Shown: positions 2,869 through 6,373 of the stretch, one piece after another
Layout of the letters: each line of letters begins with the position of its first letter
How positions within the stretch are numbered: the first letter of the stretch is position 1
Source: a virus
Lineage: Duplodnaviria; Heunggongvirae; Uroviricota; Caudoviricetes
IMG/VR virus record: IMGVR_UViG_2619619132_000003
Location: 1 to 6,373 of that record
Strand: one strand, 5' to 3'
Length of the DNA: 6,373 bases
Position numbers and translations under genes: made by a program
Notes under the pieces: model-generated
Database searches by the model: none
The model's input: the letters and a program-made list of their open reading frames with translations, nothing else
Told to the model about the DNA's origin: nothing

Positions 2869-3326
2869 TTTTGCTCACCTCCCTGTTCTTCCAGAAAAAT
2901 ACGCATAGCCTCAAGCATCTCTTCGGTGTCATACGGAGACAGCTTGTCACGCAGGATGTGTTCAATGCTGTTAATGAACTTTCGGATTGCTTTGCGTTCA
3001 ATTTCGGTCAGGAAAGCATCGGTGGCTGGGGTGTCTGATTGCAGAGACTTTGCGCGATAGTCATTCCACCCTCTTGCATACATGGGATTAACTTGCACTC
3101 CATCTTTTACGCAATATGCCTGACCTCCACGGTTGATAACCTTGATTTCGTCCATTGCGCCAGACTTCAGCCCCGCATTCTCCGCCGCCAGCTCCGCGCA
3201 CTTGGCCTCCGCTTCAGCAAATTTACGCACCAGATATTCAGCGTTTGTTTCGTTAACCTTTAGATCTCGTGGGATGCATTTACCTTTCAGAAAACCATCC
3301 ATCTCAATTAGTGACATTTGTTTCAT
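2865..3326 (-). CDS. Hypothetical protein (153 aa)
   Basis: The track ORF 2865..3344 starts with GTG. The in-frame ATG at 3326-3324 forms an ATGA overlap with the stop of the upstream small ORF (3325-3323) and is preceded by GGAG about 9 nt upstream. No family recognised. Confidence 0.5.
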
Positions 3327-3487
3327 TTCTTGCCACTCCGCCACATCGCATTCAGATATTTGTTTTGATTCACTGAAGGAAAAGAATTTCTCTTAAGCAA
3401 TTCCTCTCTCGATGGCATTGGCTTTACGCGTTGGCGAATAATCATTTCTGCCGGAAGAATGCCGGGATTGTATGCAAGTCCTCTCAT
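3323..3487 (-). CDS. Hypothetical small basic protein (54 aa)
   Basis: The track ORF 3323..3640 starts with TTG and overlaps the upstream gene extensively. The internal ATG at 3487-3485 is preceded by GAGGAA with about 7 nt spacing, and the upstream stop (3500-3498) lies inside that Shine-Dalgarno. The ATG at 3505 is an alternative but has no Shine-Dalgarno. Confidence 0.4.
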
Positions 3488-3497
3488 GGTAAATTCC

Positions 3498-3794
3498 TCA
3501 GTCATTACTGATAGCGCCATAGCGTGAGCGGTAATTACGCAGGCGCGGGTCGATATATTCAGGGAAGTGGGTATATGTGGCTTTGCGGAATGGTCGGATT
3601 GATGTCTGGTAAATTCGCTCGCGTTCTTCTTTCTCTGCAAGCCATATACAGTGGCGAAATTCCTTTTCCTCTTTCGTTTCCTGCGGTAGCGACATTATCC
3701 GATCGTAGTTTTTTCTGAATTTATCCAGCACCTCCGATACGGAATTGCCGGAACAGCGGCGCGCGTCATCCGCACCATACAGAGGCGCTGGCAT
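3498..3794 (-). CDS. Hypothetical protein (98 aa), basic and aromatic-rich, immediately downstream of erf-ssb
   Basis: ATG at 3794-3792 preceded by AAGGA with about 8 nt spacing. Size and position are reminiscent of P22 abc2 (anti-RecBCD), but I do not recognise the sequence, so this is positional inference only. Confidence 0.55.
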
Positions 3795-3817: not shown

Positions 3818-4201
3818 CTAGAAGGGAATTGAATCGTCGTATTCAGGATGATTTTGATGATTGCTACTTTGTTGCTGTTGGCTGTTTCCTGAAGTTGCAA
3901 ATCCAATCTTTGCATTCAGTAATTCAAGAGTGATTGATTGACCATTTTGCCCCTGATAAACATCAACCATGATGTTTTCTCCGGTAATTTCTACAATGCC
4001 ACCTTCAACAAGAACACTACGGTAGTAATCCGCTTGCGCTCCCGGCTTGGCAAATACAACGGCGCTGTAGTTTGTCCATTCTTTCTTTTTTGTCTGGCGA
4101 TCGTAATACTGAACGCCAGCACGGATGTTGAATCCGATATTTTCCCCGGCCTGAAACTCTCTTGCGGGCTTGTTTAGTCTTACAGTAATCGAATGTGCCA
4201 T
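3818..4201 (-). CDS. ssb: Single-stranded DNA-binding protein, short phage type (127 aa)
   Basis: ATG at 4201-4199 overlaps the Erf stop by 1 nt (TAATG), with AGGAG upstream. The core WTNYSAVVFAK...YYRSVLVEGGIVEITGENI parallels the E. coli SSB OB-fold segment WHRVVLFGKLAE...YLRKGSQVYIEGQL. A Gln-rich linker leads to the acidic tail YDDSIPF, compared with DDDIPF in E. coli SSB. Confidence 0.8.
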   Translation of the reverse strand: MAHSITVRLNKPAREFQAGENIGFNIRAGVQYYDRQTKKKEWTNYSAVVFAKPGAQADYYRSVLVEGGIVEITGENIMVDVYQGQNGQSITLELLNAKIGFATSGNSQQQQSSNHQNHPEYDDSIPF

Positions 4202-4806
4202 TAAGCAGCAGCTCCTTCTAATTCGTCTCGTCTGATGTTGTAAACGTCCTGCGCTTTGTGCTGCTCAGGTGTGCCTTCGAGCATCTTCCACGCTTTGGCG
4301 AACGCCTGTTTAAGCTCTTCTACGGTGTTTTTCTGCATTGCTGCGTCAGTGAATGCTTTTAGAACCTGTTCAGGTGTAGGTGATGGTTTTGATTGCTTTG
4401 CTGCTGCGTTCTGCTGATGTTTATGCTCGTCTGTATCTGCATCTTTCGCATCATCAATGCCGAACAAACCATTGAGGCAATACTTGCGTGCATAAGAGCT
4501 TGTAGCTCCCGTAACTTGTGCAGAATCCATTCCTTTCTTGCTTTCTTCCTCTCGTGCAAGAGCGGTTGCCGTATGGCTGTTTTCGCCATCGGTAATAGTT
4601 GCCGTGGCTTTCACGTAATACCGATCACCAATCAACACAACTTCATCGCTGATTGATAAAAACAGACCATTCAGTAACGGCTTAACGCCTTCAAGAATAT
4701 CTTCGCAGCTTCTGTATTTATATTTACCGAATGAGTTGTACTGATTCTTTGGCGCGTTCAGATTCTCCTGAATAGCTGCCAGTCTTGCGTAAAATTCTTT
4801 GCTCAT
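4201..4806 (-). CDS. erf: Erf-family single-strand annealing (recombination) protein (201 aa)
   Basis: The track ORF begins with TTG at 4836; the first ATG is at 4806-4804 and gives MSKEFYARLAAIQENLNAPKNQYNSFGKYKYRSCEDILEGVKPLL. Size, the kil-proximal position, coupling to ssb and my recollection of the P22 Erf N-terminus support the call; it was not verified by search. Confidence 0.6.
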   Translation of the reverse strand: MSKEFYARLAAIQENLNAPKNQYNSFGKYKYRSCEDILEGVKPLLNGLFLSISDEVVLIGDRYYVKATATITDGENSHTATALAREEESKKGMDSAQVTGATSSYARKYCLNGLFGIDDAKDADTDEHKHQQNAAAKQSKPSPTPEQVLKAFTDAAMQKNTVEELKQAFAKAWKMLEGTPEQHKAQDVYNIRRDELEGAAA

Positions 4807-4895
4807 ATGATTGTTCTCAGAATGGACACGGCCCAAGGAAATAACGCTGATTTAATACTTCGACTCGGGACAAATTAAGGCATACCCGCATTCCT

Positions 4896-5066
4896 TCACG
4901 ATCTCCATTCTGGCGATACATTAACGCCTGCTGCGTGTACATGCGTCTCTGTAACTTGCTCTCCTTCACTGTGGTTGCAAGTGACATGAATATCTCCTTC
5001 GTTACCGATTAATTCTTTCATCTGACGAATGAATTCTTCGTCTGACCAGTTATCTGTAAAACTCAT
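4896..5066 (-). CDS. Hypothetical small protein (56 aa) in the position of P22 arf
   Basis: The track ORF 4896..5081 starts with GTG. The in-frame ATG at 5066-5064 forms an ATGA overlap with the kil stop (5065-5063). Product MSFTDNWSDEEFIRQMKELIGNEGDIHVTCNHSEGEQVTETHVHAAGVNVSPEWRS. No sequence recognition. Confidence 0.4.
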   Translation of the reverse strand: MSFTDNWSDEEFIRQMKELIGNEGDIHVTCNHSEGEQVTETHVHAAGVNVSPEWRS

Positions 5067-5215
5067 TTCCTGCGATACCACGGAAGGTTGATAGCTGATT
5101 TCATCGCTTTATTTGCTTCAAGCCACATTTTTGAATCACCAATAAATCTGGCTATTACTGCTTTGTTCTGTGCAGCACGAAGCATCTGGTGATTGATGGC
5201 TATTTCATTGCGCAT
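5063..5215 (-). CDS. kil: Kil-like host cell-division inhibitor (50 aa)
   Basis: Hand-translated; not in the ORF track. ATG at 5215-5213 preceded by GAGG with about 7 nt spacing. Product MRNEIAINHQMLRAAQNKAVIARFIGDSKMWLEANKAMKSAIQLPWYRRK. The segment IARFIGDSKMW resembles lambda Kil (IATFIGDEKMF, as remembered). Overlaps the 3' end of cIII by 16 nt, as kil does in lambda. Confidence 0.6.
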   Translation of the reverse strand: MRNEIAINHQMLRAAQNKAVIARFIGDSKMWLEANKAMKSAINLPWYRRK

Positions 5216-5331
5216 AATAAGACCTCAACTCTTTTCCATCCGTCACGTAATTTACGGGTGATTCGTTCAAGTAAAGATTCATTTAATTGGAAGGCACCCA
5301 TGCGAGCGCCTCCCGCGATTGCGTAAATCAT
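5200..5331 (-). CDS. cIII: CIII-like protein (FtsH protease inhibitor, 43 aa)
   Basis: Hand-translated; not in the ORF track. ATG at 5331-5329 preceded by AAGGA with about 8 nt spacing. Product MIYAIAGGARMGAFQLNESLLERITRKLRDGWKRSEVLLCAMK. The core ESLLERITRKLRDGWKR and the N-terminal M-YAIAG match lambda CIII (MQYAIAG...ESLLERITRKLRDGWKR) as I remember it. Confidence 0.8.
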   Translation of the reverse strand: MIYAIAGGARMGAFQLNESLLERITRKLRDGWKRVEVLLCAMK

Positions 5332-5355
5332 GGGTGGTTCCTTATGTTGGTTTTA

Positions 5356-6231
5356 TTAGTAGGTTATTTTTGTTGCGAATACTTCGCCTTTTACGATGGC
5401 TGTTATGATATTTTTAGCAACATCTTCTGATGCACCAACCTTGATAAGGTCAGCAAGTATTTTGTTATTTACTTCTTTCCGGTGAGCTTTATCCTTTGCT
5501 CTACGCTCTTCTTCGTCCTTGATTCTTTTTTCTTCTGCTATTCTGGCTTGCTCTTTTGCTTCAGCTTCGCGCCGGATTCGTTCAGCCTCCTCCTGTGCTT
5601 TTCGGCGTTCTGCTTCAATTGCCGCCTGCTTTTCTCTTTCAGCTCGTTCTGCTGCCTCTTTTGCTTCGCGCTGTGCTCGTTGCTCGGCTTCAATGCGTTC
5701 ACGCTCTGCACGTTCCGCTGCGGCCTTAGCTTCTGCTTCTCGCCTTGCTGCTGCTTCAATTTCGGCTTTTGCCTTTGCTTCGGCTTCTGCTCTGGCTTTC
5801 TCTTCAGCTTCTCTTTTTAAGCGTTCTTCATGCTCTCGCTTTTCCTGCTCCGCTTTGAGTCTTGCCTCTTCTCTTTTGCGGTCAAATTCGCGATCCATCA
5901 AAATCGCTATTTCATGGTCAGACTCAATTTGCTTTGCGAGAGCTTCAGCTGCTGCCTTAGCTTCTTCTTCGGCTTTAATCCGTGCCTGTTCCTCCTCATA
6001 ATCAGTAAGAGGCTGGCGTGCCTTGGCTTTCAGTTCATCAAGGCGATCGCGCACTGTCTTGCGGTTGGCATCAATTAGCTTTGGAATTTCCTTCAGTTCA
6101 GCAACAAGGTCTTTGCCAAGACCATCGAGATATGTTTTCGTCTGCGCAACTTTATACGCCAGAGAAGCGATCTGAACCGCCCCGGGTTTCCTGGAGAGTG
6201 TTTTATCTGTGAACTCAGGCTGCCAGATCAT
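5356..6231 (-). CDS. E/A/K/R-rich coiled-coil protein, apparently interrupted at its 5' end by the IS; native portion 5356..6172
   Basis: The track ORF 5356..6357 starts with GTG inside the transposase coding region, in another frame. Sequence right of 6172 is IS-derived. The first in-frame ATGs (6249, 6231) lie inside the IS and have weak or no Shine-Dalgarno. The native part has no start codon of its own, so this is most likely the 3' fragment of a disrupted gene, possibly expressed as a fusion. About 170 aa are low-complexity, e.g. EAEAKAKAEIEAAARREAEAKAAAERAERERIEAEQRAQREAKEAAERAEREKQAAIEAERRKAQEEAERIRREAEAKEQARIAEEKRIKDEEERRAKDKA. Confidence 0.45.
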   Translation of the reverse strand: MIWQPEFTDKTLSRKPGAVQIASLAYKVAQTKTYLDGLGKDLVAELKEIPKLIDANRKTVRDRLDELKAKARQPLTDYEEEQARIKAEEEAKAAAEALAKQIESDHEIAILMDREFDRKREEARLKAEQEKREHEERLKREAEEKARAEAEAKAKAEIEAAARREAEAKAAAERAERERIEAEQRAQREAKEAAERAEREKQAAIEAERRKAQEEAERIRREAEAKEQARIAEEKRIKDEEERRAKDKAHRKEVNNKILADLIKVGASEDVAKNIITAIVKGEVFATKITY

Positions 6232-6373
6232 CGTTTCCGATGGAAGCATAATAAGCTTTTTCTGCTTCTGCCGGAGGAGTATGGCCCAGCCTTTCCAGCA
6301 ATCGTCGATTGTTATACCAGTCCACCCACGTGAGTGTGGCCAGTTCCACTTCTGCACGGTTTTTCCAGCTCTT
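6173..6373 (-). mobile_element. IS3-family insertion sequence (IS629/IS1203-like), terminal ~200 bp; continues beyond the window
   Basis: The plus strand from 6173 reads TGAACCGCCCCGGGTTTCCTGGAGAGTG, a TG-initiated terminal inverted repeat that I recognise as IS629-group. It sits 42 bp beyond the stop of a transposase-like reading frame on the minus strand. Confidence 0.7.
6215..6373 (-). CDS. IS3-family transposase OrfB, 3' end (partial; 5' end outside window)
   Basis: Hand-translated minus-strand frame open to the window edge: KSWKNRAEVELATLTWVDWYNNRRLLERLGHTPPAEAEKAYYASIGNDDLAA, stop at 6217-6215. WYNNRRL...PPAE...YY is the characteristic C-terminus of the IS3-family integrase-core (rve) domain. 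It is absent from the ORF track because no start lies in the window. Confidence 0.75.
   Translation of the reverse strand, partial: KSWKNRAEVELATLTWVDWYNNRRLLERLGHTPPAEAEKAYYASIGNDDLAA

Follow-up and report, generated by a model that had tools for sequence, protein, structure and literature searches.

The analysed window, a stretch of 6,373 nucleotides of Caudoviricetes DNA taken as a whole, very probably holds the cIII-kil gene pair of the early-left operon of a lambdoid or P22-like (Lederbergvirus-type) prophage. The two overlapping minus-strand genes mark the window as the early-left region of such a prophage, the part concerned with recombination and host takeover. Judging from the matching sequences, the pair is already known and widely annotated in phage and E. 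coli records, and brings no new biology; it matters mainly for annotation, where an ORF cut-off of 60 aa hides two functionally important phage genes. Moreover, the short CIII is a clear case of a mosaic junction within a coding sequence, and with an insertion sequence, IS629, lying upstream, it may be asked whether this host still allows expression of the toxic kil. The comparisons reported here bear directly on ORF integrity, family membership, identity to annotated proteins, synteny and the mosaic junction, as well as on the conserved essential residues of CIII and the predicted fold of Kil; the biochemical activities of the two proteins are attributed by homology, and their expression in this host is something we infer.

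Both ORFs had been obtained in the preliminary description by hand translation and reported there as missing from the ORF track. They reappear with the same coordinates, lengths and frames in an ORF list with a minimum of 25 aa (Table 1), and their absence from the track is real, since both are shorter than the usual listing threshold of 60 aa and surface once it drops to 25 aa. The hand translation contained no frame error, and the identical annotated proteins present in independent phage genomes exclude a frame artefact. The overlap of kil with the 3' end of cIII, which had been likened to that of lambda, is indeed present and spans 16 nt, where lambda has 32 nt and P22 has 20 nt, with the cIII stop codon TAG at 5202-5200 and the kil ATG at 5215-5213. 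In a four-way DNA alignment of the window with HK97, lambda and P22, the ATAAGGA motif and the cIII ATG are invariant. The segment ESLLERITRKLRDGWKR corresponds to residues 18-34 of the 43-aa ORF and IARFIGDSKM to residues 21-30 of the 50-aa ORF.

Table 1. Features of the cIII-kil region and its surroundings, in window coordinates.
Feature	Position	Strand	Description	Basis
erf	4201..4806	-	Erf-family single-strand annealing recombinase	phrog_155, E = 5.7e-58
HK97 gp42-like ORF	4817..4987	-	56 aa; homologue is Sf6 gp29	phrog_1723, E = 4e-35
HK97 gp42.1-like ORF	4896..5066	-	56 aa; homologue is Sf6 gp30	phrog_2123, E = 5.4e-40
kil	5063..5215	-	50 aa, MRNEIAINHQMLRAAQNKAVIARFIGDSKMWLEANKAMKSAINLPWYRRK	ORF list (minimum 25 aa), PF06301, phrog_2055, identity to annotated Kil
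cIII/kil overlap	5200..5215	-	16 nt; the cIII tail LCAMK comes from the leader/start of the HK97-type kil module	
Shine-Dalgarno of kil	5223..5226	-	GAGG, within the cIII coding sequence, 7 nt 5' of the kil ATG	read from sequence
cIII core	5233..5280	-	codons 18-33, ESLLERITRKLRDGWK; 48/48 nt identical to lambda cIII	blastn
cIII	5200..5331	-	43 aa, MIYAIAGGARMGAFQLNESLLERITRKLRDGWKRVEVLLCAMK	ORF list (minimum 25 aa), PF02061, phrog_550, identity to annotated CIII
Shine-Dalgarno of cIII	5339..5343	-	AAGGA, 7 nt 5' of the cIII ATG	read from sequence
gp33-like gene, 3' part	5356..6173	-	Sf6 gp33-like (TolA-like, coiled-coil); directly upstream of cIII; 5' end cut off	phrog_1376/21365
IS629 (IS3 family), right end	6174..6373	-	terminal inverted repeat TGAACCGCCCC... 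plus the C-terminus of its transposase; oriented like the operon	

The 43-aa protein is a homologue of CIII, as had been proposed. It scores 56 bits with the Pfam family Lambda_CIII (PF02061), whose gathering cut-off is 25.7, aligning to the first 33 of the 42 profile positions (E = 4e-15), and matches the CIII family phrog_550 in the PHROG search (E = 1.6e-20), while BLASTP aligns it both with lambda CIII (24 of 35 positions identical, the 69% referring to lambda residues 1-33, E = 1e-13) and with P22 C3 (28 of 39, or 72%, E = 9e-19). It shares with lambda CIII (NP_040620.1, 54 aa) and P22 C3 (52 aa) the N-terminal MxYAIAG/G12 motif, the core and the amphipathic helix. According to PMC1838920, which cites Kornitzer et al. 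1991, the 24 residues 14-37 of lambda CIII are both essential and sufficient for activity, and the substitutions S17A, R24A, L26A, R27A and R32A each abolish it (PMC1838920). That span aligns with residues 16-39 of the window protein, with 18 of the 24 residues identical, and all five essential positions are kept, as S19, R26, L28, R29 and R34, respectively. The amphipathic character ascribed to the core was borne out by calculation: the helical hydrophobic moment of the 24-mer (residues 16-39) is 0.55 against a shuffle mean of 0.25, with 1.6% of shuffles reaching 0.55, and the peak 18-mer has a calculated moment of 0.78, in comparison to 0.83 in lambda.

The 50-aa protein, described as Kil-like on account of an IxxFIGDxKM segment, matches Lambda_Kil (PF06301) along the full 31-position profile with 72.6 bits against a cut-off of 27.6 (E = 1.7e-20) and phrog_2055 (Kil) over positions 1-50 of 50 (E = 1.2e-35), with weaker matches to PHROG families 3924 and 2461. 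With such Pfam and PHROG values for both proteins, the homology of the cIII-kil pair to the lambda families is not attributable to chance. The core of lambda Kil (NP_040619.1, 47 aa) is 57% identical in BLASTP (17 of 30 residues, lambda residues 3-32, E = 3e-9), and the two proteins have in common the PF06301 domain, the IAxFIGDxKM motif, the G-D turn and a predicted two-helix hairpin; the lambda gene also sits between cIII and the recombination genes. The window protein is seven residues longer at its N-terminus, and its 11 C-terminal residues, with WYRRK instead of RSSK, are unrelated; it also falls in another PHROG subfamily (2055) than lambda Kil. Lambda Kil needs a helix-turn-helix core with a G19-D20 turn, either terminus alone being dispensable (PMC11762379). 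G26-D27 of the window protein aligns with this turn, and its single-sequence AF2 model predicts a helix at residues 2-25, a turn at G26-D27 and a second helix at 28-42 (mean pLDDT 86.3). A C-terminal RSK/RSSK motif occurs in nearly all close homologues of lambda Kil, where it raises the activity of the lambda protein but is not strictly required, as Kil-deltaC11 is still active (PMC11762379). The motif is absent here and the C-terminus is basic (...SAINLPWYRRK); in terms of sequence relationships, this absence marks a subfamily and does not exclude membership in the lambda Kil family.

Copies of both genes are present in well-described phages. A 701-nt query around cIII-kil matched 320 phage records, 28 of them with at least 80% query coverage and, among the matches listed, 96.6-97.7% identity. 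The CIII is 100% identical to the annotated CIII of Sf6 (gp32, NP_958208.1) and CUS-3 (ABQ88430.1) and occurs at 99% identity or more in 30 phage records, whereas the Kil is 100% identical to the Kil of HK97 (gp43, NP_037729.1), HK022, H-19B, Sf6 (gp31) and CUS-3, with no protein difference in any of the five. In Sf6 and CUS-3, too, the gene of the 43-aa CIII overlaps kil by 16 nt and has the neighbours seen in the window; their cIII differs by one silent nucleotide change, at L16, and their kil by one or two silent changes. The Sf6 record carries the notes 'putative host FtsH protease inhibitor' and 'putative host cell division inhibitor'. In RefSeq/PGAP, two E. coli prophages carry WP_000638547.1 ('protease FtsH-inhibitory lysogeny factor CIII') as the annotated protein at this position, and WP_001243354.1 ('host cell division inhibitory peptide Kil') of E. 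coli 6817 is a related protein which differs by W46C. Over the 269 nt of cIII-kil, CUS-3, Sf6 and E. coli 6817 each differ from the window at two to three positions, which makes five distinct sites; the changes are all synonymous except for W46C in kil of E. coli 6817. No NCBIfam HMM matched either peptide, nor lambda's own CIII and Kil, so that this library is uninformative here.

The preliminary description had taken the two genes to anchor a PL-type early-left operon, a claim that holds for its synteny. The minus-strand order of a gp33-like gene, cIII, kil, two small ORFs, erf, an SSB-like gene, abc2 (anti-RecBCD) and Ea22-like genes agrees with the annotated early-left regions of Sf6, CUS-3 and HK97, in all three of which erf is annotated at the matching position. 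Furthermore, cIII (c3 in P22) lies upstream of kil and overlaps it in lambda, P22, HK97, Sf6 and CUS-3, as it does in the window. The early-left assignment is therefore one of synteny only; the window includes neither PL nor nutL nor N, and the PL part of the claim is unproven. Downstream, the stop codon of kil and the start of the HK97 gp42.1-like ORF share an ATGA at 5066-5063, which suggests translational coupling of the two genes. This small ORF takes the place of P22 arf and has a weak match to the Arf family phrog_2445 (E = 0.05). Further along the same strand, a 105-aa ORF starting with TTG (3323-3640, minus strand) overlaps abc2 (3498-3794, minus strand). Its last 54 residues alone match a phage family, phrog_1117 (DUF2737-like in relatives), and the real gene is therefore probably a short 3' part, below the threshold of the ORF track.

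The observation that this CIII is shorter than the 54-aa lambda protein and diverges at its C-terminus proved correct, and the mosaic structure of the gene accounts for it. Lambda CIII and P22 C3 are 9-11 aa longer than the 43-aa window protein, and past residue 35 the likeness ends, with VLLCAMK in the window as opposed to ...DILNQPGVP... in the other two. In the four-way DNA alignment the leader and the first 17 cIII codons are nearest to P22 c3. They are followed by the core identical to lambda (Table 1), in which the residues corresponding to lambda S17, R24, L26 and R27 are found; R34, which corresponds to lambda R32, is encoded one codon past it, at 5230-5232. This 48-nt lambda-identical stretch is set in diverged sequence, P22-like upstream and HK97-like downstream. 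From TTATGCGCAATGAAATAG on, the window and HK97 are identical, and from codon 38 the DNA matches the HK97 kil module through the end of kil. It is the leader and the beginning of this HK97-type module that encode the last CIII residues, LCAMK. The CIII of HK97, HK022 and H-19B (HK022 class, 44 aa) has the same five final residues and the same kil junction, but is otherwise a very different protein of another CIII class (MMHFQLAGSGVMSAFYPHESELSRRVKQLIRAAKKQLEA...), and tblastn with the window CIII did not detect it in HK022. The alignment places a recombination junction around cIII codons 34-37, in a gene which, as read from its sequence, is not decayed. Phage mosaicism having put this junction inside cIII, the protein is short and has a divergent C-terminus; modular recombination would have joined a 5' end resembling P22 to a core identical to lambda, with the tail contributed by the HK97-type kil module.

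By homology, the amphipathic helix of CIII (residues 16-39) would act as a competitive inhibitor of the membrane protease FtsH-HflKC. Such inhibition would stabilise CII (and sigma-32) and direct the phage towards lysogeny. In turn, Kil, as a 50-aa helix-turn-helix peptide, would impose a ZipA-dependent block on the assembly of the FtsZ ring, and is expected from its homologues to turn cells filamentous when the phage grows lytically or is induced. The 16-nt overlap between cIII and kil and the ATGA link between kil and the next ORF make it probable that the cluster forms one compact polycistronic unit of translation.

Upstream of cIII, the region is interrupted. Sf6, CUS-3 and E. coli prophages are homologous to the window as far as 6173 and no further, which leaves about 151 nt of the 5' end of Sf6 gp33 without counterpart, and the gp33-like gene, unlike that of Sf6 and CUS-3, is cut by IS629. 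Positions 6174-6373 are 100% identical to IS629 copies in Stx2a phages and correspond to the annotated IS629 right inverted repeat in VT1-Sakai. The ORF of 333 aa at 5356-6357 is consequently a chimera, its first ~61 codons being IS sequence. The window ends inside IS629, the end of which lies 840 bp upstream of cIII, and ral, N, nutL and PL are not within it. An independent IS629 insertion in the gp33-like gene, in the same orientation and 67 bp from the site in the window, was found in E. coli UTME-12 (NZ_CP157095.1), where the junction at 7127/7128 of the compared locus corresponds to window position 6106. In that strain IS629 is followed by immI and tailspike remnants and not by N-PL-cI, in a rearranged defective prophage. 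The two insertions may reflect an insertion hot-spot or IS-mediated prophage rearrangement. The exact junction of the gp33-like gene with IS629 was not found in an exact-match scan of species-representative genomes, nor was an identical one found by megablast of complete E. coli genomes and phages, where UTME-12 was the nearest.

Several other readings of the pair were weighed. With 92 ORFs of 25 aa or more in the 6.4-kb window, short ORFs are plentiful and the two could in principle be chance open frames in non-coding or other-frame sequence, but this is hardly credible given curated Pfam matches 30-45 bits over their cut-offs, identical annotated proteins in dozens of genomes, correct Shine-Dalgarno spacing for both genes and synonymous substitutions with respect to relatives. 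That the 43-aa CIII is a truncated, non-functional protein without the last ~17 residues of lambda CIII is suggested by its being 11 aa shorter and by the loss of similarity after residue 35; it is nonetheless very unlikely, as the span equivalent to lambda 14-37, sufficient on its own in lambda (PMC1838920), is retained whole, the protein recurs without change in 30 or more phage records, the viable phages Sf6, CUS-3 and HK544 among them, the 44-aa CIII of the HK97/HK022 class also ends in LCAMK, and the differences from other cIII copies are synonymous. For kil, the preliminary description had named lambda CIII and Kil together with P22 C3 and Kil as comparators. The first two and P22 C3 turned out to be relatives, whereas P22 Kil (62 aa) is unrelated, with no significant BLASTP similarity (E = 0.22, 13 bits). 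A Kil of P22 type, which that choice of comparators implied and which would fit the position between c3/cIII and erf, is thus next to impossible, the more so as the P22 DNA diverges completely after c3 in the four-way alignment; P22 Kil and the 50-aa Kil share position and name, with no ancestry detectable here. As regards activity, it is improbable, though conceivable from the sequences, that an HK97/Sf6-type Kil, with its 7-residue N-terminal extension and WYRRK tail, departs from the lambda scheme in its partner dependence, for example by acting independently of ZipA, and that the chimeric CIII, a lambda core with an HK022-class tail, has altered oligomerisation or turnover by FtsH; no experimental test of an HK97/Sf6-type Kil or of exactly this CIII was found in the searchable literature.

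A further alternative accepts the cIII-kil pair as such and concerns expression only, leaving the gene identities unchanged. It holds that both genes are intact but silent relics in a defective prophage, cut off from PL and N by IS629, possibly together with a deletion or rearrangement. Transcription of cIII-kil from PL is unproven here because PL, N and nutL are outside the window and IS629 cuts the upstream gene; the end of prophage homology at 6173, where the IS629 end begins, agrees with silence, as do the rearranged defective prophage bordered by IS629 in the same gene of UTME-12 and the lack of any promoter-like site on the minus strand between the IS end and cIII. More broadly, a scan for promoters and terminators in 4700-6373 gave nothing above shuffle expectation. 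On the other hand, neither ORF is damaged and viable phages carry identical ones, and IS629 is co-oriented with the operon, so that N-antiterminated or IS-derived read-through is possible. Silencing is a tentative reading, plausible but somewhat doubtful.

The RNA level offers a few minor observations. An Rfam scan of the window returned no match. When the lambda cIII leader was folded as a control, its Shine-Dalgarno region was paired; in the window leader, the MFE structure did not show the lambda-type fold that sequesters the ribosome-binding site of cIII. Only two Shine-Dalgarno bases pair there, within a weak local stem of 2 bp, and in the centroid the Shine-Dalgarno sequence is unpaired. 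The dominant feature of the fold is a stable local hairpin, GGAGGCGCUCGCAUGGGUGCCUUCC, at 5270-5310 on the minus strand, within cIII codons 7-15.
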